Source: Promethearchaeia archaeon
Lineage (GTDB): Archaea > Asgardarchaeota > Lokiarchaeia > Sigyniarchaeales > SOKP01
Length of the DNA: 64,000 bases
Reading direction: 5' to 3'
Assembly: GCA_029856155.1 (NCBI GenBank)
Contig: JAHQWL010000096.1
Coordinates: forward strand, 1 to 64,000
The position numbers and the translations under genes are program-made. Below, in pieces: positions 24,716 to 54,132 of the stretch (the first letter of the stretch is position 1; the number at the start of each line of letters is the position of its first letter). Below the pieces are notes generated by a model, which saw nothing but the letters and a program-made list of their open reading frames with translations, was not told where the DNA came from and made no database searches.

Positions 24716-25648
24716 TTAAGCTTGAATTACTTCCATCAATTTAGGAAATATTCGGGGATAATGAACAGCCATACAATGTACGCCAGCTAATAAGCCCTTT
24801 TTCTTTAGTTCGGAAATAAAGGGCTTGAAAAACTCATAGTTTGCTTGATCATACAATCTTTTCTGTTCCTTTTTATCATCCTTAAATTCTGTTTTAATAT
24901 TTTTCCATTTAGCCAAAATATCTTTAGGAACATCAACTCCAGGAACAAATGTATCAAAACCCTTGGCAATACCATAGCTCTTCATTGGAAAAATTCCAAG
25001 TAAAACTGGAACGTTATACCTTTTGATCTCACTTAAAAATTCAATGGTTCGATCCAAATCATATACAACTTGAGTCTGTATAAATTCACATCCAGCCTCG
25101 GCTTTCCTTCCAATTTTTAAAATTTCAGCCTCCATAGGATCGGAATTTGGATTTGCAGCCGCACCAACATGAAAAGTTGGAGCATGTTCAATTTCATGGC
25201 CATTTATGGAACCTTTATCAACCATCTCTCGTATTAATTTAACTAAAGTTGCAGAATCAAGATCAAATACAGGTTTAGATTCTGGCATATCTCCAAGGGC
25301 AGGATGATCACCAGTAAGAGATAACACATTTCTCAAACCCAATGCATGAGCTCCCATAATCATTCCAGCTATGCCTAATTTATTCACATCTCTTACTGTA
25401 AGTTGCCAAATCACTTCCAATCCAGCTTCTTTTTGGATAATATGAGAAGCAGCCATACTATTAATTGTTACTATCCCTAAAGGACTATCAGTGACATTGG
25501 CAGCAACTACGTAGGGAGCCATTTCTTTGGCTTCTTGAATAGTATGGGAGAGATCACACGTTTTTTCGGGCTCTAACTCACCAGTTAGTATAAAATCCCC
25601 ATTTGTTAACTTTTCACCTAATTTAGAATAAACTTTTTTTTCTGCCAT
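24716..25648 (-). CDS. metF: Methylenetetrahydrofolate reductase MetF (copy 1)
   Basis: GELEP, NVTD, QLTVRD.N, LTGDH, FDLDS, FIQTQ, GVHCMA. Confidence 0.92.
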   Translation of the reverse strand: MAEKKVYSKLGEKLTNGDFILTGELEPEKTCDLSHTIQEAKEMAPYVVAANVTDSPLGIVTINSMAASHIIQKEAGLEVIWQLTVRDVNKLGIAGMIMGAHALGLRNVLSLTGDHPALGDMPESKPVFDLDSATLVKLIREMVDKGSINGHEIEHAPTFHVGAAANPNSDPMEAEILKIGRKAEAGCEFIQTQVVYDLDRTIEFLSEIKRYNVPVLLGIFPMKSYGIAKGFDTFVPGVDVPKDILAKWKNIKTEFKDDKKEQKRLYDQANYEFFKPFISELKKKGLLAGVHCMAVHYPRIFPKLMEVIQA

Positions 25649-25655
25649 TTTAACT

Positions 25656-26327
25656 CTACCTCCATACTACTTCTCGTTGATGACCAGATTCGCTCCAATC
25701 CACTGGATCTCTCAATTTGGAGAATAAATCTAATCTCCCTATTTCTTTCAATCGATTATAAATTAAAACCCAGCCACAATCTTTCTCGTAATTGCCAACT
25801 TCACATTTACCATTAACCATTCCACCGCATGGCCCATTCATAAGCGATTTAGCACATGTGGTTATGGGACAAATACCTCCTGTTTCATTTAATAGACAAT
25901 CACCACACCCTCGACATCGCATATAAAATCTGCCAATTCTCTCCGTCATCCCCATAAATTCTGTATTATTTGTAACAAACACTCTCTTTTCTGGATATTT
26001 TTTAGATAGCACCTGAATTATTGATTGAACCCCAAGTCCGCAACTTAAAGTGACAATAGAATCAGCTTCTTGAACATCAGCATCATTTTTACGTACAACT
26101 TTAGCCATTTCCCTATTATCACAGACATCATCTACAACCATGCCATTAACTATTTCATATCCTTCTTTCTCTAAGATTTCTTTCCATTCCTCTAAACCTT
26201 TTTCACCACCTGTTTGACATAATGCTGAACAAACCCCACAACTTACAAGAAACAATTTTTTAGCATTATTATCTTTCAGAACATTAAGGACTTCCTCTAC
26301 CGGCTTTTTAGTAGTTATAACAACCAT
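25656..26327 (-). CDS. metV: MetV, Fe-S/Zn subunit of MTHFR (copy 1)
   Basis: CG.C..LCQTGG, SCGLGVQ, CRGCGDC.L..TGGICP.T.C.KSLMNGPCGG...CEV...C.W. Confidence 0.9.
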   Translation of the reverse strand: MVVITTKKPVEEVLNVLKDNNAKKLFLVSCGVCSALCQTGGEKGLEEWKEILEKEGYEIVNGMVVDDVCDNREMAKVVRKNDADVQEADSIVTLSCGLGVQSIIQVLSKKYPEKRVFVTNNTEFMGMTERIGRFYMRCRGCGDCLLNETGGICPITTCAKSLMNGPCGGMVNGKCEVGNYEKDCGWVLIYNRLKEIGRLDLFSKLRDPVDWSESGHQREVVWR

Positions 26328-26552
26328 TTTTTTCACAAATTTTTTTTTTTTTAAAAGGTATTTTTTAATCTTAAGTAGTGAAATTAATCAAGATATTTAT
26401 TATTTTGAGTTATGAAATGTAACGTTTCGAAAAGAAAAATATTAAAAATAAAAATTTATATGATAAAAAAGAAACTATTATACCTAAAAGAGTTAAATTT
26501 TAGACCCCTTTCACGTTCACAGTCCAATTAATAAAGAGTATAATCAAAGGTC

Positions 26553-41654: not shown

Positions 41655-42125
41655 TTATAAAACTCGAACTTCCGATTGTTGTTGAAGGGTTTTTATTGGT
41701 CTTAAAACTACGCATACTCTCTCAACACTTTTTACATCTGCACGGGCACGAAATGATTCTATTAACGCATCTAGCTCAGTTATTTCAGGTACATTGACTT
41801 TTATTAAAACACCACATTCTCCCGCGAGAAAATAAACCTCCTCACATTGAGGTAGAATTTGGGCTTCTCTTAATAATTCTTTTGTCTCAGCTAAGCTCTT
41901 TGGAATAAGTGTGAGGAATACTATAATGCATCTCTCATCTTCGCGACAAATCTTTATAGTAAACTTTTCAATTACCCCTTCTTCTTGCAGTTTGATAACT
42001 CGTTTTCTTACAGTCGATTCAGATAATTGTATTTTTTCATCTGCTGCTATTTCGTGATATGGTCTTCTAGAATCCGCAAGAAGCATTTCAAGGATTCTTT
42101 TATCCTTATCATCTAAATTTTTCAT
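41655..42125 (-). CDS. Lrp/AsnC family transcriptional regulator
   Basis: LDDKDKRIL..L..DSR....EIA....LSESTVRKRV.KL...GVI; RAM domain. Confidence 0.93.
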   Translation of the reverse strand: MKNLDDKDKRILEMLLADSRRPYHEIAADEKIQLSESTVRKRVIKLQEEGVIEKFTIKICREDERCIIVFLTLIPKSLAETKELLREAQILPQCEEVYFLAGECGVLIKVNVPEITELDALIESFRARADVKSVERVCVVLRPIKTLQQQSEVRVL

Positions 42126-42221
42126 TTTTATTCATTCTTATATTTTTTTTTTACTAAATTCAAAAAAAATTATATTCTAAATTTAAAGAAAATTATAATT
42201 TTCTATTAAGTATTGTTGATA

Positions 42222-43154
42222 TCAAAAATCTTTGAGAAGTGGTCCAAATAACCTTTCGTAGTGGACTGCCATGCAATGAATACCTGCGGCTTTAGTAGTT
42301 TTCTTGATTTCTTTAATAAATGGTTCGTAAAATTCTAGATTAATTTTATCGATCGCAGCATATTTTTCTTGTTTATCTTTTATTTTTTTAGTTGCCTTTA
42401 GAGCATTTAAAAAATCTTTGGGAACAGAAACACCAGGAATATATTCATTAAAATACCACGCAATCCCATAGTTTTTTATTGGAAACAACCCAAGTAAAAT
42501 TGGAGTATTATATTTTTCTAATTCCTTTAGAAACTCCTTAGCATCATCAATATCAAATGAAGTTTGGGTTTGAATGAAATCTGCTCCTATTTCTACCTTT
42601 CTCCCAACTTTTAAAATTTCTGGCTCTCTTGGATTTGAATTTGGATTTGCAGCACAACCAACGTTTATTTGCGGTTTTCCTCCTACTATCTCATTTCCTT
42701 CTAAATCAGTTCCTTCATCAACCATTTTTGAAACGAGATCTATCAATTGAGTAGAATCTAGATCATATACAGGTCTAGCATTTTGGTGATCTCCAAGGGC
42801 AGAATGATCACCTGTTAATGCAAGTAGATTTTTAAGACCGAGAATTGCACCACCTAAAATATCACCAAATAGAGCAATTCTATTTCTATCTCGAACAGTC
42901 ATCTGCCAGATAGCTTCTAATCCGACTTTTTCTTGAACTAGATAGCAAGGAACCATGGAACATGTATAAGCATCTCCTTGAGGACCATCTGTAACATTAG
43001 CGGCAACGATTTTTCCAGTATTTTTCATTGCTTCTGCAGACTTCAGAACATGTGTTAAATCAAAATCTTTTTCAGGTTCTAATTCGCCAGTGAATACAAA
43101 TTTTCCTTCTTTAATATTCTTTACTAAATTACTATAAGCGGGTCTTTTTGGCAT
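42222..43154 (-). CDS. metF: Methylenetetrahydrofolate reductase MetF (copy 2, in the hdr operon)
   Basis: GELEP, NVTDG, QMTVRDRN, LTGDH, FIQTQ; ATG 43154 just after the metV stop, SD AGGAGG. Confidence 0.92.
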   Translation of the reverse strand: MPKRPAYSNLVKNIKEGKFVFTGELEPEKDFDLTHVLKSAEAMKNTGKIVAANVTDGPQGDAYTCSMVPCYLVQEKVGLEAIWQMTVRDRNRIALFGDILGGAILGLKNLLALTGDHSALGDHQNARPVYDLDSTQLIDLVSKMVDEGTDLEGNEIVGGKPQINVGCAANPNSNPREPEILKVGRKVEIGADFIQTQTSFDIDDAKEFLKELEKYNTPILLGLFPIKNYGIAWYFNEYIPGVSVPKDFLNALKATKKIKDKQEKYAAIDKINLEFYEPFIKEIKKTTKAAGIHCMAVHYERLFGPLLKDF

Positions 43155-43155
43155 T

Positions 43156-43854
43156 TTATACTTTCTCCTCCTTTTTCGGTTCTTCCACATTTGAACTTGG
43201 TTCATAAATATGTAAAAATCGTGGACTCGACCATATGCGGTAATTACGTGGTGGTCTATATGTTGTAAATAGATCTAATCTGTTAAATTTCTTCAGACGT
43301 TCCCACATTTTCACCCAAGCACAATCATATATATATCCTCCAACTTCACATTTACCATCGACTTGTCCTCCACAAGGACCGTTACTCAGGTTTTTAGCAC
43401 ACCCCGCCATCGGACAAATACCTCCTGTAACTCCAAGTAAACAATCCCCACATGTTTCGCAATATTCAGCAAAATAATTTTCTCCATTATTCTCTACACC
43501 TCCAAACATACTATTTTGTGCTGGAAAAGTGAGAATTGTAGGAATGATTCTATTTAACATTCCTACGCCTAAACCACATGCTAATGAAACAATTGCATCA
43601 TACTCTTCAATAAACGGTCTTAATGTTGTAGCAGCAATTCTGTCATCACATTGTCTTAAAACTGTGATGGCTTTCCATTTTAAATCTTTTCCATTACTCC
43701 TTGCTTTTAATTCTAACATTTGTGCTAATACTTTTGCTTCATTAATTGAACGTGGAGGTTGACAACATCCATCACAACCAGCCACTAGAATTTTTGAATA
43801 TGGTTTTATCATTTCATATATTTCTTCAATATCTTTTTGTTTAGTTATAATCAT
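43156..43854 (-). CDS. metV: MetV (copy 2)
   Basis: MIIT.QK, GCDGC, RQCD, ACGLGV, CETCGDC.L..TGGICP..GC.K.L.NGPCGG. Confidence 0.9.
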   Translation of the reverse strand: MIITKQKDIEEIYEMIKPYSKILVAGCDGCCQPPRSINEAKVLAQMLELKARSNGKDLKWKAITVLRQCDDRIAATTLRPFIEEYDAIVSLACGLGVGMLNRIIPTILTFPAQNSMFGGVENNGENYFAEYCETCGDCLLGVTGGICPMAGCAKNLSNGPCGGQVDGKCEVGGYIYDCAWVKMWERLKKFNRLDLFTTYRPPRNYRIWSSPRFLHIYEPSSNVEEPKKEEKV

Positions 43855-43892
43855 TTTAAAAAACTCTTAATTTTATTAATTTGATAATTAAA

Positions 43893-46800
43893 TCATTTTG
43901 TTATAAGAATTTCTTCTTTTTTATAGTCATTTTCAATAGGACCTAACTTTTTTAATTTTTCGGTCAACCCTGTAATGGTTTCAGCAAATAATTTCCCTTC
44001 ACTCGCAGAGATCCATTTTCGCATGAACCTTTCTGGATTGATTCCAAGAGATTCTAATATTTTTTCAATTTCATTAGTTCTTCTTAAAGCATCTTGATTT
44101 CCCGCGATGTAGTGGCAATCGCCGAGATGGCATCCACCAACAAAAACACCATCAGCACCTTCTAAAAATGCTTGCAATATGAAGCTCTTTGGAATACCAC
44201 CAGAACACATAACCCTTATTGTCCTTATATTTGGAGGATATTGATACCGACTTACTCCAGCTAAATCAGCACCGGCATAACTACACCAGTTACAGAGAAA
44301 AGCAACAATTCTTGGTCGTCCATCTGAAAGTGAAGTTTTTGCAGCTTCAGTTATCATTGGTTCAATTTGAATACGTCCGAAGTGACTCATTGTTATAGCT
44401 TCTGCGGGACATTCAGCAGCACAATCTCCACAACCTTTGCAAAGTAAAGGATTAACTTCAGAGATCATTAAACCTTCTTCATATTTTACACCAATTGCAC
44501 CATAATTACAAACTTCAGCACATCTATTACAACCAATACATAAAGCAGGATCAACCTTAGAAATGATACCTTCAGTTATTAAGATATCTTTAGATAAAAT
44601 TGTGGTGGCTCTAGAGGCGGCAGACATTGCTTGTGCTATACTTTCACTTATTGTTGCAGTTCCACGAGCAGTACCACATAAAAAGATACCATCAGTAGCG
44701 AAATCTGATGGTCGGAGCTTTACGTGAGCCTCTAAGAAAAAATTATCATCATTGATAGGAACCTTCAACATTTTTGCTATATTTTCGTTTATTTCGCCAT
44801 CAGCAACTATACCGGCGCTTAGAGCGACTAAATCCGCATTTATCTTGATATTTCCAATATCCGGTTTATCTATATAAATAGCTAATTTACCATTTTCTAG
44901 CTTTATTTCTGGAGGTTTATCATCTTTAAACCTAAGAAAAATTACTCCTTTTTCTCTTGCTAAATTATAATATTTTTCTTTAAAACCATAAGTTCTTATA
45001 TCTCTATATAGAACAGTGATATTAAGATTTGGATTAATTTCTTTTGCTTTTAATGCATTTTTAATGGCTTCACTACAGCATATTCTACTACAATAAGGAT
45101 GCTCTTCATTCCTTGATCCAACACACTGGATCATTACGACTGATTTTAGATCATTAATTTTTTCTTCTTCAGTAAAGAGAATTTTCTCAAGTTCTGATTG
45201 TAATATAACTCTATTATCATTATCAAAAAGAAATTCATTATTTTTAGGTTGATATTCCTGAGCTCCCGTAGCAACTATAATAATACCGTGCTGGAATTCT
45301 TTCTTTTGTTTCTCTTTACCATAAGTAATTTTGGTTGTAAAATTACAAACATATCCTCCTATTGAACTAATTTTAGCATTTAGAAATACATTAATGAGCT
45401 TATGATCGTTAACTTTCTTAATTAAATCTTCAAGAAATTCTTGAACGTCATAATTTTCTATAGTTTGATAAATATTATTAGAAAAACCCCCTAATTTTTC
45501 ACTTTTCTCTACGAGGAACACTTCAAATCCTTGATTTGCAAGGTTTAAAGCTGCTGACATCCCAGAAACACCTCCTCCAATTACCATTCCCTTGTGAATT
45601 ACTTCTACTTGTTGTTCTTGAAGAGGGACTAATTTTCGAGCTTTTGCAACAGCCATTCTCACTAAATCCTTTGCTTTTTCTGTTGCTTTCTCTGGTTCAT
45701 GCATATGTACCCATGAACATTGATCACGTATATTTGCTAAATCGAAGAGATATTTATTCAAACCTGCCTCTCTAATGGTTTCTTGAAATAATGGTTCATG
45801 AGTTCTTGGTGTACATGAAGCAACTATTACTCTATTTAAATTATACTCTTTGATTTTTTCTTTAATATTAGTTTGAGTATCAGCAGAGCATGTATATAAA
45901 TTTCTTTCTGCGTAAATTACATCATGTAATTGATTTGCATATTCGACAACTTCAGGAACATCTACAACTCCTCCAATATTAATGCCACAATGACATATAA
46001 AGACACCGATGCGAGGTGGTTCTCCACTTGTATCAATTTCTTTTGGTAATTCTTTTTCAGTGATTAATGTGTTCCTAACATCAGATAAAAGAATATTCAC
46101 TGCACCTGCGGCAGCACTCGCCTCCACAACTGTTTCTGGAATATCTTTAGGTTCTGAAATCATACCACATACATAAATTCCTTCTCTGGATGTCTCTACG
46201 GGGGAGAATGGTTTTGTCTTACAGAAATCATAATCATTCAATTCAATATTTAATTTTTTTGCTAACTCTTTTGTGCTATGATTTGGTAAAGCTCCTACTG
46301 CTAAAACAACTAAATTAAAAACCTCACTAACTACTTTTCCATCTTCATTTTCAAAATGAAGTAATAGATCTTTTGTTTCAGGTATTTCCTTAGTATCCGA
46401 AATTCTACTTCTAATATATCTTATACCATATTCATTTTGAGCACGTTCAATATATTTATCGAAATCTTTTCCAACAGCTCTCACATCCATTGAAAAAATC
46501 GTGGGTTCAATAATTTCCATATGTTCTTTCGCAATTACAGCTTCTTTAGCGGTATACATACAACAAACTGAAGAACAATATTCTGCACCATGTTTTTTAT
46601 CCCTAGACCCTACACATTGTAGGAATGCTACTTTTTTTGGAATTATTCCGTCTGACGGTCTGAGGATAAGCCCCGAATGAGGACCACTTGCGCTTAAAAT
46701 CCGTTCAAATTCAATACTAGTGACTACATTCAAATATTTACTGTATCCATATTGTTGGGTAAGACTAGGGTCATATTCATCAAACCCAAGTGCTAAAACA

Positions 46801-47354
46801 ATAGCTCCAACATTCAGAGTAGTAAATTTATCTTCAAGAGTGTAATCTATTGCTTTAGCTTTACAAACTCCTTTACAAAAACCACATCCTATACATATTT
46901 CTTGGTCTATCGAAAAAACCAATGGAACTGCTTGTGGAAATTTTACAGATATTGCTGCTCTATTTGATAATCCTTCATTAAAGAAATCGATTGCCTCTAC
47001 AGGACATTCTTGTGCGCACACCCCACAACCAGTACACTTCTCTTGATCTAATAACAACGTATTTTGTCGCAGATCTACAGAAAAATTTCCGGGATTTCCT
47101 TCAATTTTTTCTAAAGTGGTATTAATTAAAAGTGTAATATTTTCATGACGCCCCGCAGCAACTAATTTAGGAGCGAGGATACATATAGAACAATCATTCG
47201 TAGGAAAAGTTTTATCTAATTGAGACATAACACCTCCTATACTCATTGAAGATTCAATTAAATAAACTTTAAAGCCTGAGTCTGCCAAATCCATTGAAGC
47301 TTGGATACCTGCTATTCCTCCTCCTATTACTAGAACTGCACCAATTTTTTCCAT
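43893..47354 (-). CDS. hdrA: Large HdrA-family flavoprotein (two FAD modules) fused to a C-terminal MvhD domain
   Basis: GGGIAG and GGGVSG Rossmann motifs, [12 protein letters not shown], two QCVGSR/YCS..CC clusters, ferredoxin motifs, C-terminal [12 protein letters not shown]...RVMCSG...GCHLGDCHY. Confidence 0.95.
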
Positions 47355-47356
47355 CT

Positions 47357-48127
47357 TTAAACCTCTTTAATTGATATAAAAGTGGGAATTTCCTCATTTA
47401 TTTGATCAACATCAACTAAACCTCGAGCTCGAAGAGTTACAATATGTCGTAATACTTTGTGAGATTCAACACCAATTTCCTTTGCAATATCAGGGACAGA
47501 TTTACCTTCTTTCTTAATTTTTTCTAAAATTTTATGACGAATAATTTCATTTTCAATAGCATTATCAAGTATTTCCTCAAATTCTTCTATTGGTATTATT
47601 TCTCCATATACATTTCCATCTGTGGTTAATTCTCGTTGCCTAGCAACTAAAGCTCTTAACCTTGAATCACATAGGGCAAATTTAACAGCATTTAGATTAT
47701 CAATTATTTCTTTCTTTACATTATTATTTTTAACTGGAGATGGTCCCAATTTACGGATATGATCAGTAAAATCACTAACTATTTGAGCAAATCTATTTCC
47801 TTCTGCTGCAGAAACCCAATCAAGTCGAACTCGATCAGAGAAATCTATCATTGATAATGTTTTACTTAACATTTTCATTTTTATTTCTGCTTCATAATTA
47901 CCGCTTATATAATGACAATCTCCCAAATGGCATCCTAAAACAAGTACTCCATCAATCCCATTCATAAATGCTTCAGCTATAAATACGGGATCAACTCTTC
48001 CAGAACACATAACTCGAATAACTCTGACATTTGTTGGGTATTGGATTCGACTAACACCTGCTAAGTCTGCTCCAGCATAAGAGCACCAATTACATAAAAA
48101 ACCTAAAATTTTTGGTTCAAATACCAT
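47357..48127 (-). CDS. mvhD: MvhD [2Fe-2S] subunit with C-terminal wHTH-like extension
   Basis: [39 protein letters not shown]; extra about 125 aa ending [11 protein letters not shown]....VLRHI..LRARG. Confidence 0.93.
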
Positions 48128-49795
48128 TTATTCTCCACCTCCATAGGTTACAATTTCTGCAATAATTTGATCACTAGTAAAATGGTGTATGGTTATTGCA
48201 TTTTGCGGGCAACTAGCTCCACATAGTCCACACCCCTTACAAACAACTTTATTAACTACTACAGTATCTGTTTCCTCATCTTTAGATATTGCACTATAGG
48301 GACAAATTTTAATACACGCTTCACATCCCACACATAAATCTGTATTTACTTCGGCTGTAGAACCTTCTACTTCTAACATTTCTTTAGAAAGTATTGTACT
48401 TGCCCTAGAAGCTGCCGCATTTGATTGTGATATAGATTCTGAAATATCTGCTGGCCAATGAGCAGAACCACATACGAATATACCGTCTGTAGCAAAATCA
48501 ACAGGTCTTAATTTCACATGAGCTTCTAAAAAGAAGTGATTCTCTCCTAATGGTACTTTTAACATTTTAGCTAACTGCTCTGAATCTTCATTTGCAACAA
48601 GTGGCATTGATAATACAACAAGATCATAGGGAAATCCAATAACTTGATTCATAAATTCATTATAGACCTCAATACAATCTTTTTTAATTGTTGGAGGTTT
48701 TTCTGGTAAATATTTTATAAATAATATTCCCATTTCTCTTGCTCTTCTATAATATTCCTCATAGGTGACACCTTGAGTTTGAATATCTCTAAAAATTATA
48801 TTAACATTAGCATTTGGATTGTGTTCCTTGATTAAGATTGCATTTTTAAGAGCAGTCATACAGCATATATTAGAACAATATTTTCGTTCTTCATTTCTAC
48901 AACCAACACATTGAATCATAGTAGTATTATTGGTGCTGATTTTATTCTCTTTTAATATTCCTTCTAATTCTAATTGACTTATTATAGTCTTTCCATTATA
49001 ATTATAATATCCTTCTGGTGATAAAGCTTTTGCCCCCGTAGCTACAATAATAGCTCCTGCTTCAATTTCGATTGTTTTTTTATTTTGGAGAATAATTACT
49101 TTAAAATTCCCTACATATCCTTCAATTTTTTCTATTACAGCAGACTTATATACATCAATCTTTTTATGACTCTCTACTAAATTTCTTGTTTCTAATATAT
49201 TTGAAGCATCTTCATTAGTAGGATATACTTTATTTAGATGCCTAATTAAACCTCCTAGTTCAGCATCCCTCTCTATTAAACTTACTTTAAAATTTTGGTT
49301 TGCTAAATTTAATGCAGCATTCATTCCTGCGATCCCTCCTCCTATTACTATAGCAAAAGGAATTACACTAACTTGCGTTTTTTCTAATGATTCTAATAGG
49401 GCAGCCTTATAGACACCCATTCTAATGAGATCTTTAGCCTTTTCAGTTCCTTTTTCTGGTTCTTTCATATGAACCCAGGAATCTTGATCTCGAATGTTTA
49501 CCATTTCAAATAAATAGGGATTCAAACCTGCTTCTTGACAAGTTGATCTAAATAAGGGTTCATGAGTTCGAGGAGAACACGATGCTACAATAACACGATT
49601 TAAATTATATTCCTTTATATTTTTTCTTATCTCACTTAATCCAACCTCTGAACATGTATAAAGATTTGCATCACTATATACTACGTTAGGTAAAGTTTTG
49701 GTATATTCTGTTAACTCAGAAATATCTAAAACACCACCTATATTAGTACCACAATGACAAATAAAAACTCCAATTCTAATATCATCATCCGTCAT
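48128..49795 (-). CDS. hdrA: HdrA-family subunit (module 2: N-terminal Fe-S domain, FAD domain, C-terminal ferredoxin)
   Basis: [43 protein letters not shown], two CxxCxxCxxxCP motifs. Confidence 0.93.
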   Translation of the reverse strand: MTDDDIRIGVFICHCGTNIGGVLDISELTEYTKTLPNVVYSDANLYTCSEVGLSEIRKNIKEYNLNRVIVASCSPRTHEPLFRSTCQEAGLNPYLFEMVNIRDQDSWVHMKEPEKGTEKAKDLIRMGVYKAALLESLEKTQVSVIPFAIVIGGGIAGMNAALNLANQNFKVSLIERDAELGGLIRHLNKVYPTNEDASNILETRNLVESHKKIDVYKSAVIEKIEGYVGNFKVIILQNKKTIEIEAGAIIVATGAKALSPEGYYNYNGKTIISQLELEGILKENKISTNNTTMIQCVGCRNEERKYCSNICCMTALKNAILIKEHNPNANVNIIFRDIQTQGVTYEEYYRRAREMGILFIKYLPEKPPTIKKDCIEVYNEFMNQVIGFPYDLVVLSMPLVANEDSEQLAKMLKVPLGENHFFLEAHVKLRPVDFATDGIFVCGSAHWPADISESISQSNAAASRASTILSKEMLEVEGSTAEVNTDLCVGCEACIKICPYSAISKDEETDTVVVNKVVCKGCGLCGASCPQNAITIHHFTSDQIIAEIVTYGGGE

Positions 49796-49799
49796 TTTT

Positions 49800-51098
49800 T
49801 TACCCCCTCATCACCATTTCAGCAGCTTTAGCTGCAGCTCCACTGGCATCAATTACTGAATTTGGAATATCCATTGGTTCCCTACAAGTACCACAGAGAA
49901 ATATACCTTCTTTAGAGGATTTTTGGGGTTGATAACTCTCTGCTTTGAAAAAATTAAAATCATTTATTTTAATTCCAAGGATTTTAGCTAATTCTCCAGC
50001 ATCTTTTTTAGGTATCATAGTAGAAGCTAAAATTACTAAGTCAAATTTAAGTTGTTTCACTTGCGAAGTATTAATATCTTCATATATAATTAGAGGATTT
50101 CTTTGATCATCTTCTAATATCTTCGCTACCTTTCCTTTAATGTATTTAATAGCGTATTCATCACATCCCCTTTGAATATATTCTCGAAAACCTTTACCAG
50201 CAGCTCTAAGATCAATATAAAATATTGAAGTATCTATTTCATTATCATGCTCATAAGCTATCATTGCTTCTTTAGTGGTATACATACAGCAACAAGATGA
50301 ACAATATGGATTGTTTTTTATATCCCTTGAACCTACACAATTAATAAAAGCCAGTTTTTTAGGCTCATTTTTATCTGATGGTCTCGTCAAATGTCCTCCC
50401 AAAGGTCCAGAAGCACTAATTAATCTTTCAAATTCTAGAGCGGTAACAACATTGGGATATCGACCATATCCTAAAGAATCAAGAGTTTTTGGATTAAATA
50501 TATCATAACCTGTCGCTACAATGACTGATCCCACATTTAATTCCATTTCTTCATCCTTTTGATCGAAATCGATTGCTTCTCTTTCACAAACTTTTTCACA
50601 AATCCTGCAAGCGTTCTTTGTGAAAAATAAACAGTTTTCTTTATCTATAGTCATTATTGAGGGAACACCTTGAACATAATCAATATAGATTGCTCTACGT
50701 TTTCTTAATTTCATATCAAATTCATCATCTACCCTCATTGGACATTTTTCTATACATTGTCCACAATTAATACATTCTTCTGCTTTTACATATCTTGCTT
50801 TCTTGAAGATTTTCACAATGAAATTCCCTGGTTGACCTGATAAATTTTTTACTTCTGAAAGTGTATGTAAAGTAATATTTGGATGTCGAAAACATTCTGC
50901 GAGTTTTGGAGCTAAAATACAGATAGAACAGTCATTAGTAGGAAACGTTTTATCAAGTTGTGCCATTCGTCCTCCGATACAGGCATTTTTCTCAACCAAT
51001 TCGACGTTTATACCTCTTTCAGCTAAATCTAAAGATGCTTGAATTCCTGCGATTCCCCCTCCAATAACCATAACTGTTTTTAAATTTTTACCCAACAT
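49800..51098 (-). CDS. hdrA: HdrA-family subunit (module 1: FAD domain with inserted ferredoxin)
   Basis: [26 protein letters not shown]...CP, CVGSRD...YCSSCCCMY. Confidence 0.93.
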   Translation of the reverse strand: MLGKNLKTVMVIGGGIAGIQASLDLAERGINVELVEKNACIGGRMAQLDKTFPTNDCSICILAPKLAECFRHPNITLHTLSEVKNLSGQPGNFIVKIFKKARYVKAEECINCGQCIEKCPMRVDDEFDMKLRKRRAIYIDYVQGVPSIMTIDKENCLFFTKNACRICEKVCEREAIDFDQKDEEMELNVGSVIVATGYDIFNPKTLDSLGYGRYPNVVTALEFERLISASGPLGGHLTRPSDKNEPKKLAFINCVGSRDIKNNPYCSSCCCMYTTKEAMIAYEHDNEIDTSIFYIDLRAAGKGFREYIQRGCDEYAIKYIKGKVAKILEDDQRNPLIIYEDINTSQVKQLKFDLVILASTMIPKKDAGELAKILGIKINDFNFFKAESYQPQKSSKEGIFLCGTCREPMDIPNSVIDASGAAAKAAEMVMRG

Positions 51099-51115
51099 AA
51101 TTCCTCTCCTTTATA

Positions 51116-51985
51116 TTAAGCAATTTTTTGTAAAATATCATTAACTTTAATCCTATGGAAGTTGAAACCTAATTTATCCATATCCATTCCTAGAGCTAAA
51201 GCAATTAGCTCGGTTATGTAAAAAACTGGAAAATTATAGTTTGTATTTTTAATTTTATTTATTTCTCTCTGGTTGAAATCAAATTGTTGATAACAAGCGG
51301 GGCAAACACATGCAATACAATCTGTTCCTGCTTCTTTCATACTTTTAAGCTTACTCTCCAACATACTTAGGGAAATATCCTTATCAGATTTTTCTACGGG
51401 ATTCCCACAACAATCATTCTTCAAACTGTATTCAACTGGATTTGCTCCAGTTGCTTCAATTAATTCATCTAATGTTTTAGGATTTAGTGGATCATCCCAA
51501 TTTATTATTTCAGATGGACGTAAATAATGGCATCCCGGGTGACCCGCAACTCTTAGATCTTTTAATGGTTTCTTGACCTTTTCCTTAATTTTTTCAATAT
51601 TTTCATATAACACTTCAGCAAAATGTTTTATATCAATATTTCCTTTATAAGCTTTTCCAATTACCTTTAATTTCAAATTAATTTCTTTTTTCTTCTCGTT
51701 ATCATTATCTAAAATGTGTTTAACTGTTTTAAGAGATTCTGTACATCCAGAACATAGACTTAATATATTCTTTTTACTTTCTTCGAAAAGACATATATTT
51801 CTTGCTCCTAAAGTTAAGAATGTTTCATGATCCAATTGAGCCGCACCAGTAGGATCTGGGCAACATGAACATTTAGCTTGATCTCCAACTTTCAAACCAA
51901 TTTTTTCGAATGTACTTCGCGCAGATGCTTCTAAAAATGGTAGTCTTCCAGGAATTACACAGCCTAAAAAGTAACTATAAGACAT
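51116..51985 (-). CDS. hdrB: Heterodisulfide reductase subunit B (CCG domains)
   Basis: FLGC, SCCPDP, CSGC, HPGCH.LRP, CCG, CPAC..QFD. Confidence 0.93.
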   Translation of the reverse strand: MSYSYFLGCVIPGRLPFLEASARSTFEKIGLKVGDQAKCSCCPDPTGAAQLDHETFLTLGARNICLFEESKKNILSLCSGCTESLKTVKHILDNDNEKKKEINLKLKVIGKAYKGNIDIKHFAEVLYENIEKIKEKVKKPLKDLRVAGHPGCHYLRPSEIINWDDPLNPKTLDELIEATGANPVEYSLKNDCCGNPVEKSDKDISLSMLESKLKSMKEAGTDCIACVCPACYQQFDFNQREINKIKNTNYNFPVFYITELIALALGMDMDKLGFNFHRIKVNDILQKIA

Positions 51986-51986
51986 T

Positions 51987-52493
51987 TTATTTATTTACCT
52001 CAAACAGTTTTATTTTTTTTTCAAAATCAGTAGCATCTAACAATTTTTTTAATTCTTTAATATTAGCAGTTTCTACATTCGGAAGTCCCAATTGATCTCT
52101 TCTACGAATGATTGGTTGTGTTAGGGGAATTGCTAATCCATGTTGTATTACACTTATTGCTTGCATTTTATAAGTCTCAGGGTAAGGTTCTCCTAATAAC
52201 ACAATCTTATTTTTAATTTTCTCAAAAATTTCCGTCAAAAAAACGTTTTGGGGGCATTCTTCTACACACATCTGGCATGTACAACATAACCATACATTAG
52301 GTTTTTGATCTTTTAATAACAAATCTTTTAGCCCTAATAGTGATTGTTCGATAATTTTTCGAGGATTATATTCACCATTAGTGATTAAAGCAACAGGACA
52401 TGTGCTGGAACAAGTTCCACATTGATAACAATAATTTAGTGAGAAAGCTCCTTTAATCAGTTCATTTCGAAATTCAAAATCAACCATTTGCAT
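51987..52493 (-). CDS. hdrC: Heterodisulfide reductase subunit C
   Basis: CYQCGTCSSTCP, NPRKII, WLCCTCQMCVEECPQ. Confidence 0.93.
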   Translation of the reverse strand: MQMVDFEFRNELIKGAFSLNYCYQCGTCSSTCPVALITNGEYNPRKIIEQSLLGLKDLLLKDQKPNVWLCCTCQMCVEECPQNVFLTEIFEKIKNKIVLLGEPYPETYKMQAISVIQHGLAIPLTQPIIRRRDQLGLPNVETANIKELKKLLDATDFEKKIKLFEVNK

Positions 52494-53001
52494 AATCTTT
52501 AACCTATATAGTAATTAGTATGATATATTTTAGAATCTAATTATCTATTTTATAAATATTGATATTTTTAATAATATATTTATTATATTTTTAAGGATTA
52601 CAATAGTTTTTTCCAATATAATAATTAAGATCGATCTTAGTATTTAAAGATTTTTTACCATTTCGGAAATATATAACTTTTTTTAAAGTTTCCAACATTT
52701 TCATTTATGATTTTGAAAAATAAGTAAGAAAAAAGTATTAATTTAAAAGCTTTTTAACTTTTTAAATTATCACATTTGAATATTAATTCAAAATATGATT
52801 AAAAACGCAATTTTTTACAAGAAAAATTCTTAATATAAAAATAATGAAATCGGGAAGTATAATTTAAATTCCTATATTTTTATAGTAAAAAATATACGAT
52901 TTAAGTCATTTTCATATGTTTTTATTAATAAAAATTATAATATTTGTAAGTATTATAAAAATATTAATTAATTTTTAGATAGAAAGAAAAGGTAAATTAG
53001 T

Positions 53002-54132
53002 ATGTCTGAAGAACCTACAGCTAAAATGAGTGATATCATGCCTAAATCTTTCGAAGACCTCATTAAAGATGTCCATGAAAAAGATATCTGTGGAGAATGT
53101 GGAGGTTGTGTAAGTTTTTGTACCGCAGCAGATATAGGAGCTATTGAAATGACTGAAAATGGGTCACCTCATTATTCTAATGAAGAAAATTGTTTACATT
53201 GTGGAATATGCTATTTAATATGTCCTGAAACTTTTGAATTGAGAAATGAATTAAACAATAAATACGATTTTAAACCTCCAATTGGAAGTTGGCTTAAAAT
53301 TGTATCAGCTCAAGCGAAAGATCCAAATATTCGGGAAATAGCTACTGATGGGGGAGTTGTAACAGCTATCTTAATTGCACTTTTAGATAATAATTTAATA
53401 AATGGAGCACTTATATCAAAAAGAATTAGTTCTTTTAAGAGAATACCTTTTTTTGCTAAAACGAAGGAAGAAATTCTTGAAGCTGCAGGTACTTATTATG
53501 ATTTAAAAGGCCCTGTACCGGAATTAGGGAAATATAATACTTTTGTTTCCACTATTTCTGAATTAAAAAAAATTACTGATTCCGATTATATGAAAATTGC
53601 TGTGGTCGGAGTACCCTGTCAGATTCACTCCATTAGAAAAATGCAAGAACTCAATATAATTCCTGCTCATATTGTTAAATATACGTTAGGATTATTTTGT
53701 TATGAGAATTTTAAATTTAATGATGTTGCCAGAGCGAAAATTGAAGAAAGATTCAAATTTTCTTTTGAGGATATTGAGAAGATGAATATAAAAGACAATT
53801 TAATAATTTATTTAAGAAATAAAGATAGTCCCCTAAAGGTAGAATTTTCTGACCTTAGAGATATTATGAGACATGCTTGTAGAGTATGTAAAAATTTTTC
53901 AAACTATTTTGCTGATATTTCTTTTGGAGGTTTAGGTTCTCAAACAGGTTATACAACGGTTATGGTTAGAACTAAAACAGGAGAAAAGATCTACAATCTC
54001 GCTCAAAATAAAGGTTATATTATTGAACCAACTGAATTAAATACGTCTGTAGAAAAATCAAAATTATTAGCGCAAATCATTAGTTTTAGTAAAAGAAAGA
54101 TAAGAAGAGCTGAAGATTTTGAAGTAATATAA
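53002..54132 (+). CDS. FrhB/FdhB-family F420-interacting flavoprotein with N-terminal ferredoxin (FpoF/FqoF-like)
   Basis: CGECGGCVSFC, CLHCGICYLICP, DGGVVTA, VGVPCQ, LGLFC.ENF, AC..C..F...ADISFGG.G. Confidence 0.9.
   Translation: MSEEPTAKMSDIMPKSFEDLIKDVHEKDICGECGGCVSFCTAADIGAIEMTENGSPHYSNEENCLHCGICYLICPETFELRNELNNKYDFKPPIGSWLKIVSAQAKDPNIREIATDGGVVTAILIALLDNNLINGALISKRISSFKRIPFFAKTKEEILEAAGTYYDLKGPVPELGKYNTFVSTISELKKITDSDYMKIAVVGVPCQIHSIRKMQELNIIPAHIVKYTLGLFCYENFKFNDVARAKIEERFKFSFEDIEKMNIKDNLIIYLRNKDSPLKVEFSDLRDIMRHACRVCKNFSNYFADISFGGLGSQTGYTTVMVRTKTGEKIYNLAQNKGYIIEPTELNTSVEKSKLLAQIISFSKRKIRRAEDFEVI

Follow-up and report, generated by a model that had tools for sequence, protein, structure and literature searches.

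Methylenetetrahydrofolate reductases (MTHFRs) of type IV are known from Moorella, in which MetVF, HdrCBA, and MvhD were enriched as a complex (PMC8760232, PMC13040438). Moorella HdrA is the NADH donor site and the methylene-tetrahydrofolate (methylene-THF) site lies in MetF (PMC8760232), while the identity of the third redox partner of type IV enzymes, unknown since 2014, had yet to be settled in 2026 (PMC13040438). Here we describe an hdr-metVF operon and a divergent FrhB-like gene in a stretch of 64,000 nt from a Promethearchaeia archaeon (GenBank contig JAHQWL010000096.1), referred to as the window. The window is contig C97 of a Loki-type genome that is 4.1 Mb in size, 97% complete, encodes many small GTPases, and is represented in samples from marine sediment and salt marsh. 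In our judgement there is an even chance that the operon codes for a methylene-pterin reductase, an archaeal MetVF of the Hdr type ('type IV'), which carries out the methylene-to-methyl step of a Mer-less Wood-Ljungdahl branch of the tetrahydromethanopterin (H4MPT) type, and that the FrhB-like protein is an accessory F420 plug-in.

In Elp-Hdr of Methanothermobacter marburgensis (ElpABC-HdrABC, 8RVU), an FrhB-family subunit feeds electrons from F420H2 via an MvhD homologue into the bifurcating HdrA (PMC12350162). F420H2-dependent bifurcation, probably at FdhB, has also been reported for FdhAB-MvhD-HdrABC of Methanospirillum hungatei (7BKB). FwdI and ACDS zeta of Candidatus (Ca.) Ethanoperedens thermophilum are plug-in F420 reductases with measured activity, and ACDS zeta, at least, anchors to its partner through its ferredoxin domain (PMC11493965). 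Clusters of metFV-hdrA-mvhD were found in Ca. Syntrophoarchaeum, a MetF type common to ANME-1 and uncultured archaea was described (PMC9012536), and frhB-hdrA-mvhD clusters of Korarchaeia were proposed to couple F420 and ferredoxin (PMC10667645). Full-text searches, which had Spang et al. 2019 and Sousa et al. 2016 outside their coverage, returned no paper describing a combined FrhB/Hdr/MetVF locus in Asgard archaea.

Like MetFV-HdrCBA-MvhD of Moorella thermoacetica (Mock et al. 2014, as given in PMC8760232 and PMC13040438), the window co-encodes metV and metF, a type II HdrA, MvhD, HdrB, and HdrC, and its HdrA halves show the complementary loss of Cys197 and the N-terminal domain known from Moorella HdrA (PMC9012536). 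Unlike in Moorella, the HdrA-HdrA-MvhD unit is present twice, one MvhD has a winged-helix tail, the core is accompanied by an FrhB-type gene and a closing lrp, and the host is archaeal, with F420 and a pathway of the H4MPT type. The window shares with Elp-Hdr and Fdh-Hdr the co-encoding of an FrhB-family protein, an MvhD homologue, and HdrABC, but it has no scaffold subunit resembling ElpA or FdhA. Its FrhB-like protein is distant from ElpB (E 2e-10) and has its own N-terminal ferredoxin domain; the acceptor branch of Elp-Hdr is CoM-S-S-CoB via HdrBC, whereas we propose MetVF for the window. With FwdI and ACDS zeta, the FrhB-like protein has in common a docking 2x[4Fe-4S] ferredoxin domain followed by an FrhB domain with FAD (flavin adenine dinucleotide) and one [4Fe-4S] cluster, and thus the modular logic of a soluble F420 port attached to an Fe-S wire (PMC11493965). 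However, FwdI and ACDS zeta dock on Fwd and CODH, respectively, and not on Hdr/MvhD. The window resembles Syntrophoarchaeum in having archaeal MetVF beside HdrA/MvhD without Mer and Korarchaeia in having FrhB beside HdrA/MvhD, but joins at one locus, with a duplicated HdrA core, what was reported there as separate associations.

MetVF in a lineage without Mer

Genes for Mch, F420-dependent Mtd, CdhC, and FolD are all present in the host genome, and Fhs was not found in it. The host also has the F420 biosynthesis genes cofH (457 bits, with cofG adjacent), cofE (273 bits), and cofD (C99:7351-8253), confirming that F420 can be expected in this archaeon, as an earlier note made from the sequence of the window had supposed. 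True Mer was not found in the host genome, where the best proteins reached 168-174 bits against the TIGR03555 cut-off of 348.7, and none of the 135 genomes of the host family, including the host itself, reached this cut-off. MetF of the window type was found in 128 of the same 135 genomes. Because F420, Mch, Mtd, and CdhC are present and true Mer is missing throughout the family, MetVF is the probable stand-in for Mer in the methylene-to-methyl step of this lineage. The MetF type of uncultured archaea, Asgard archaea included, has been proposed as the replacement of Mer in ANME-1 and Syntrophoarchaeum (PMC9012536). It should be noted that 'methylene-THF', the substrate named in the earlier note, is probably too narrow a label for a host that has an H4MPT-type methyl branch without Mer.

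The MetF of the window scores under the NCBIfam cut-offs for NAD(P)H-MetF, and no solved relative of MetV was found by sequence. In every relative, metV lies directly after hdrAA::mvhD or hdrB, and lrp follows metF in all double-HdrA loci and in nearly all single-HdrA loci that are long enough to show it. The earlier note assumed that MetVF associates with the Hdr proteins; at the level of genes, this is supported by the tight operon in every relative and by the Moorella precedent.

The window contains a second metV-metF pair (24716-26336, minus strand), with MetF 50% and MetV 37% identical to the Hdr-linked pair. This pair has no adjoining Hdr genes, and a gene of the metallo-beta-lactamase fold lies on its metF side. 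Among relatives, 7-27 kb lie between it and the Hdr-linked pair, from which it is divergent in one genus (L168, L169).

Two pseudo-dimeric HdrA units

The 1153-aa HdrAA::MvhD fusion was compared with the solved HdrA 5ODC, and the four FAD domains of the cluster were aligned together. Residues 7-370 of the fusion correspond to HdrA 146-510, residues 445-598 to HdrA 2-155, residues 858-1000 to HdrA 503-645, and residues 1013-1142 to MvhD. HdrA' and the first half of the fusion both have a thioredoxin-reductase-like FAD domain, an inserted ferredoxin domain, and a PTNDCSIC motif (Cys194/Cys197), and in both the HdrA domains of the N and C termini are missing. HdrA'', like the second fusion half, starts with the HdrA N-terminal domain and ends with the C-terminal ferredoxin domain, and its FAD domain has neither the inserted ferredoxin domain nor Cys197; HdrA'' thereby complements HdrA'. 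Equivalents of Glu356 and Lys409 are invariant across all four FAD domains, and hdrA' is 46% identical to residues 1-440 of the fusion.

The complementary loss of Cys197 and the N-terminal domain therefore occurs twice, once within a fusion and once as two genes, and by this complementarity each pair of halves imitates an HdrA homodimer inside one unit. The cluster is thus predicted to encode two pseudo-dimeric 'type II' HdrA units, one split and one fused, each with its own MvhD. Type II HdrA has been described as being without any biochemical investigation (PMC12054007). A selenocysteine or read-through origin of the hdrA'/hdrA'' split was ruled out: hdrA'' is in a different frame with its own ATG 4 nt past the hdrA' TAA, and read-through is also countered by the split being kept in many species.

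In a confident AlphaFold2 model of the long MvhD (pLDDT 87.5), the MvhD [2Fe-2S] domain is followed by three helices and a winged helix. Foldseek matched residues 1-135 to MvhD 5ODC_D (1e-12) and, weakly, the tail to the ArsR-type winged helices NolR and HlyU (E about 0.02-0.07). The tail comprises the C-terminal 120 aa (47360-47725, minus strand) and is kept across archaeal phyla in the alignment, where Bathyarchaeia, Methanomassiliicoccales, and Heimdall-type archaea share it in their double-HdrA clusters. In an MvhD homologue of an Eiseniibacteriota bacterium (L047:11680-12426), an in-frame TGA falls precisely on the second cysteine of CNWC, and the protein is probably a selenocysteine MvhD.

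The FrhB-like protein as a plug-in candidate

The FrhB-like protein combines an N-terminal 2x[4Fe-4S] ferredoxin domain with an FrhB-type FAD/[4Fe-4S] domain. Cys 30/33/36/40 and Cys 64/67/70/74 form the two ferredoxin motifs, Cys 206/233/293/296 match the cluster ligands of FrhB in the alignment (motifs as given in PMC3591093 and PMC11493965), and DGGVVT at residues 116-121 fits the FAD helix motif DGG(I/V)VT. Among solved structures its closest relatives, matched from end to end, are FwdI (8RJA_E, 7.7e-45) and ACDS zeta (8RIU_B, 6.5e-42). By sequence and domain structure, the FrhB-like protein is a candidate plug-in F420:Fe-S oxidoreductase. Among 33 matches of longer proteins, none had FrhB fused to MvhD or HdrA, which is a weak negative.

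About 14 genes of the host genome belong to the FrhB family and about 17 are HdrA-like (contigs C4, C11, C21, C22, C30, C37, and C97). Eight to nine of the FrhB-family genes directly adjoin HdrA/MvhD genes.

Linkage of the FrhB-like gene to the Hdr-MetVF cluster

We distinguished double-HdrA ('type D') from single-HdrA ('type S') clusters and used three anchors, HdrA'', the FrhB-like protein, and MetF, to follow the locus through related genomes. With HdrA'' as the anchor and one genome per species, a divergent FrhB was found in 9 of the 10 Promethearchaeota MetVF-type loci that cover the upstream side. With the FrhB-like anchor, searched in 400 genomes of the phylum, strong matches were nearly restricted to the host family (125 of 134 genomes) and fell into identity tiers of at least 68%, 54-63%, and 44-47%. 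Forty loci around the top two tiers were examined, and the FrhB relative adjoins a double-HdrA core in 38 of the 39 informative ones. The top-tier FrhB is divergent from hdrC in 13 species, including the window, and straight from hdrA', without hdrCB, in 7 species of another genus; metV-metF-lrp follow the core in all top-tier loci where the contig allows it (15/15). Of the 26 informative orthologous double-HdrA/MetVF clusters, 20 have a divergent FrhB, among them the 7 without hdrCB. The recurrence of the gene order in at least 20 species-level genomes indicates that the arrangement is not due to chance.

With MetF as the anchor, a single-unit operon, hdrAA::mvhD-hdrC-hdrB-metV-metF-lrp, emerged as the most frequent form in the family. 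It occupies the same syntenic site, which is flanked by Lrp2, thermosome, PEPCK, and GTPase genes. In another genus (L168), an FrhB of a different lineage is the first gene of the single-HdrA hdr-metVF operon and is co-directional with it.

The same Hdr chassis is found with a different outlet in the host genome. FlxABCD-HdrABC is reportedly an NADH dehydrogenase/heterodisulfide reductase of Desulfovibrio, said to go back to Ramos et al. in 2015. In the paralogous cluster C4:35730-49606 (L023), a Flx-like module replaces MetVF in the order hdrC-hdrB-frhB-hdrA'-hdrA''-mvhD(long)-hdrAA-mvhD-Fe-S protein-Fer4_22 protein-PyrK-like NAD(P)/FAD protein-frhB. The last gene of this operon is the closest FrhB paralogue of the window gene (58%), the second FrhB lies between hdrB and hdrA', and the C4 hdrC is 55-56% identical to the window hdrC. 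Its Fe-S, Fer4_22, and PyrK-like proteins beside MvhD and Hdr resemble Desulfovibrio Flx, but the archaeal version has two FrhB-type genes, and the likeness concerns the paralogue and not the window cluster. The second-tier FrhB, together with four loci at 68-70% identity, is likewise the last gene of hdrCB-A'-A''-mvhD-AA-(mvhD)-X-Fer4_22-PyrK-like clusters. Judging from these gene orders, a single Hdr chassis seems able to take either MetVF or the Flx-like module as its outlet. The C4 cluster is followed immediately downstream by an actin gene.

Taken from gene content, the link of FrhB to the Hdr-MetVF cluster is real yet dispensable. The conservation of the linkage across Asgard genomes, which the earlier note had named as a check, holds for the 20 of 26 clusters in one Lokiarchaeial family, but it is not universal, with at least three losses and with 16 of 17 single-HdrA operons lacking FrhB. 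Overall, that note's F420-linked reading was partly supported, and FrhB proved to follow the Hdr core and not MetVF.

Proposed mechanism and alternative explanations

In the proposed mechanism, MetF would be the catalytic flavoprotein and MetV its Fe-S adaptor, which would be wired to the HdrA flavins through an MvhD [2Fe-2S] domain. The FAD of the FrhB-like protein would exchange hydride with F420, and its three [4Fe-4S] clusters would hand electrons on one at a time to an HdrA flavin, with the second MvhD as the probable relay. The net reaction would be reversible: 2 F420H2 + methylene-pterin + oxidised ferredoxin <-> 2 F420 + methyl-pterin + reduced ferredoxin. An extra or alternative high-potential branch would be provided by HdrBC. 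In this scheme we infer the physical complex, F420 as a substrate, the docking partners of MvhD, bifurcation, ferredoxin as a partner, and the identity of the pterin. By analogy, the wiring from FrhB-like via MvhD to HdrA has direct precedent in Elp-Hdr and Fdh-Hdr, and the outlet would be the new element. The seven hdrCB-less clusters with FrhB, four HdrA modules, and MetVF can be taken as the best genomic argument for MetVF as the high-potential outlet of an FrhB-fed core.

A more far-reaching version, which we put forward tentatively and consider well short of probable, is that a single supercomplex is made up of the FrhB-like protein, long MvhD, HdrA'A'', HdrAA::MvhD, MetVF, and perhaps HdrBC, acting as an F420H2-dependent bifurcating/confurcating methylene-pterin reductase. 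If true, this would be a new enzyme activity that names the archaeal third partner of Hdr-type MTHFRs, and it would replace Mer in the Asgard Wood-Ljungdahl pathway with an altered balance of ferredoxin and ATP. Hypotheses on how eukaryotes arose draw on metabolic reconstructions of Loki-type archaea, in which the H4MPT Wood-Ljungdahl methyl branch is taken to be complete. If the methylene-to-methyl step runs via an Hdr-coupled MetVF, it could yield or use up reduced ferredoxin, in place of a simple F420H2 reaction, and the energy balance of the pathway would change. The locus offers a concrete candidate for the third partner of type IV MTHFR, namely F420 via a dedicated plug-in subunit, and it comes with natural controls: sister species with and without FrhB, with and without HdrBC, with one or two HdrA units, and the Flx-like paralogous core.

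Several points weigh against an F420-linked reductase at this locus. The first is energetic. The midpoint potentials are -340 mV for F420, about -310 mV for methylene/methyl-H4MPT, and about -200 mV for methylene/methyl-tetrahydrofolate (H4F). With an H4F-like couple, electron transfer from 2 F420H2 to methylene-pterin and ferredoxin lies near equilibrium and can be reversed. Only an H4F-like pterin makes bifurcation from F420H2 to ferredoxin worthwhile, and H4MPT would entail confurcation or the HdrBC branch. Because the energetics depend on the pterin in this way, our confidence in the term 'bifurcating' is limited. The second concerns the FrhB-like protein. Its F420-proximal loop reads IKDNL instead of IGKGK (VKKEGL in FwdI and IGEGK in ACDS zeta in the alignment), and its scores are under the cut-offs of both NCBIfam FrhB (TIGR03289, 155/331.5 bits) and FpoF (NF040616, 112/475 bits), so that by sequence it is assigned to the superfamily and is neither FrhB proper nor FpoF. 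Its bacterial relatives, 41-45% identical over 95% of the length, are ferredoxin+FrhB proteins fused to HisKA/HATPase histidine kinases in Anaerolineae, Cloacimonadota, and others, possibly a family of flavin/Fe-S redox sensors, and CofD was not found in a bacterium that has a 47% FrhB relative inside an Hdr-Flx cluster. The third concerns the linkage. Six orthologous double-HdrA/MetVF clusters have no FrhB, the slot being empty in four and occupied by an alpha/beta hydrolase in two. These six loci are not monophyletic in a quick maximum-likelihood tree of the fusion protein (modest support), implying at least three losses of FrhB with hdr-metVF-lrp kept. FrhB is also missing from 16 of 17 informative single-HdrA operons, it lies on the strand opposite to the hdr-metVF operon as a separate transcript, and its clade ends Flx-like clusters without MetVF, tracking the Hdr core and not MetVF.

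These points of linkage favor an alternative that we regard as rather unlikely, in which Hdr-MetVF is a self-contained type IV reductase with a donor other than F420 (reduced ferredoxin, NAD(P)H acting on a flavin of HdrA, or H2 through an Mvh whose genes lie elsewhere) and FrhB is a mere neighbour of MetVF. FrhB would then serve the double-HdrA core in another way, for example in F420:ferredoxin or F420:disulfide exchange via HdrA'A''-MvhD-HdrBC. Consistent with such donors, canonical Mvh-type hydrogenase genes adjoin other hdr genes in the host genome (C33 and C22), and in Moorella it is HdrA itself that is the NADH site (PMC8760232). However, the 7 species that lost hdrCB kept FrhB and all four HdrA modules, leaving MetVF as the sole encoded high-potential outlet beside FrhB, and a second FrhB lineage was recruited co-directionally to the hdr-metVF operon of L168. 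Furthermore, the genomes without the divergent FrhB keep a paralogue with 55-61% identity, and this FrhB of the Flx-type cluster may substitute in trans.

We consider it improbable that MetVF is an anabolic, H4F-specific reductase under Lrp control, serving methionine and C1 needs, with Mer-like proteins carrying out the Mer step. FolD is present, an Lrp/AsnC regulator is the conserved last gene, the window has a second metVF pair, and three tandem Mer-like LLM-family F420-dependent oxidoreductases are encoded at C88:26965-30386, with TIGR03555 as their best NCBIfam match (135-174 bits). Scored against the two NCBIfam Mer cut-offs of 349 and 276 bits, however, these proteins are reported as falling below half and match other LLM subfamilies nearly equally well, and true Mer is missing from the whole family. 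Moreover, the missing Fhs leaves no complete H4F methyl branch, four HdrA flavin modules would hardly be needed by an anabolic enzyme, and such MetF has been proposed to replace Mer elsewhere (PMC9012536). The Mer-like C88 genes could be auto-annotated as 'Mer' in Asgard genomes. About 12 kb from them lies a 625-aa FrhB-containing open reading frame (ORF) of Fsr-like length (C88:14244-14702).

Very improbable is a role of the FrhB-like protein as a redox-sensing or non-F420 flavo-Fe-S protein that reports the Hdr redox state or exchanges electrons with ferredoxin only, for which the kinase fusions, the missing CofD, the unconserved lysine loop, and non-F420 members of the FrhB family such as 7-hydroxymethyl chlorophyll a reductase (5DQR, a weak match) can be adduced, but the nearest solved relatives are proven F420 reductases, of which FwdI departs from IGKGK in a similar way (PMC11493965), the host makes F420, FrhB is an operon member among catalytic subunits in the paralogous cluster, and the FrhB-like protein has no output domain.

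Gene features of the locus

The gene positions, the gaps of 0-38 nt, and the AT-rich spacer described in the earlier note were all recovered from ORFs and Pfam matches (Table 1). The gaps from hdrC to metV are 1, 17, 4, 0, 2, and 38 nt in the ORF listing, and metF and lrp are separated by 96 nt. The longest ORFs of metV and metF share 50 nt, and would be about 1 nt apart if metF begins at Met18 (43154). The longest metF ORF opens with a Lys/Arg-rich stretch of 17 aa that is unaligned in orthologues. Met18 is probably the true start, giving 310 aa, because this fits the length of the second MetF of the window and the starts of the orthologue alignments (residues 9-14).

Table 1 Features of the hdr-metVF locus in the window.
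Feature	Coordinates	Strand	Size	Assignment
lrp/asnC-family regulator	41655-42125	-		Pfam HTH_AsnC 6.7e-11, AsnC_trans_reg
metF	42222-43205	-	327 aa (longest ORF)	Pfam MTHFR 1.9e-30
metV	43156-43854	-	232 aa	Fe-S subunit; Pfam DUF5981/MTHFR_C 2e-29
hdrAA::mvhD	43893-47354	-	1153 aa	Two Pyr_redox_2 stretches, Fer4, FlpD 1.6e-51
long mvhD	47357-48127	-	256 aa	FlpD 7.6e-53, weak HTH_20
hdrA''	48128-49795	-	555 aa	Pfam and four-way FAD-domain alignment
hdrA'	49800-51098	-	432 aa	Pfam and four-way FAD-domain alignment
hdrB	51116-51985	-	289 aa	Pfam CCG 1.3e-25, two stretches
hdrC	51987-52493	-	168 aa	4Fe-4S dicluster; Pfam Fer4_8 2.7e-11
Divergent control region	52494-53001		508 bp	14.8% GC
FrhB-like gene	53002-54132	+	376 aa	FrhB_FdhB_C 3e-38, FrhB_FdhB_N 1e-17, N-terminal Fer4

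MetV has 13 Cys, and HdrC has two [4Fe-4S] motifs, CX2CX2CX3C at residues 22 and 70. HdrB was said to keep both CCG ligand sets, and indeed both CX31CCX35CX2C-type motifs are intact, beginning at C9 and C152. A scan of the contig and of neighbouring genes also agreed with the reported lack of MvhAG hydrogenase and Fdh genes in the cluster: contig C97 has no NiFe-hydrogenase large subunit, for which the genome has matches on C33, C22, and C16 only, and neither the cluster nor its neighbouring genes include molybdopterin, Fdh, or ElpA-FdhA-like ORFs.

The slot between the GTPase gene and hdrC is a variable site within an otherwise fixed neighbourhood. Alpha/beta hydrolase genes lie in it at L179:3148-5680 and L180:13394-14482, one of them with an OrfB_IS605/TnpB-type gene. 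Decayed or reduced clusters were also seen (L117, which is the same locus as L035; L175; L182; and L183): in one species hdrCB and metVF are separated by just one hybrid HdrAA, and three species have fragments of hdrC, mvhD, and hdrAA beside an intact metVF.

Control region

An alignment of 13 orthologous spacers showed conserved blocks in the control region, including the palindrome TAAGATCGATCTTA at 52626-52639 and the inverted repeat TGAATATTAATTCA at 52777-52790. The TAAGATCGATCTTA palindrome was scanned for in 18 type-D loci with hdrCB, 17 of genus g1 and one of g11, and lies 133-147 nt upstream of hdrC in 16 of them. It was absent from g12 and from single-HdrA and Flx-type clusters. The palindrome is kept with or without FrhB and therefore belongs to the promoter side of hdr; as a mark of co-regulation with FrhB it was rejected on the same ground. 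Our guess is that Lrp binds the palindrome, whose 12-mer occurs once in the genome, equal to the chance expectation.

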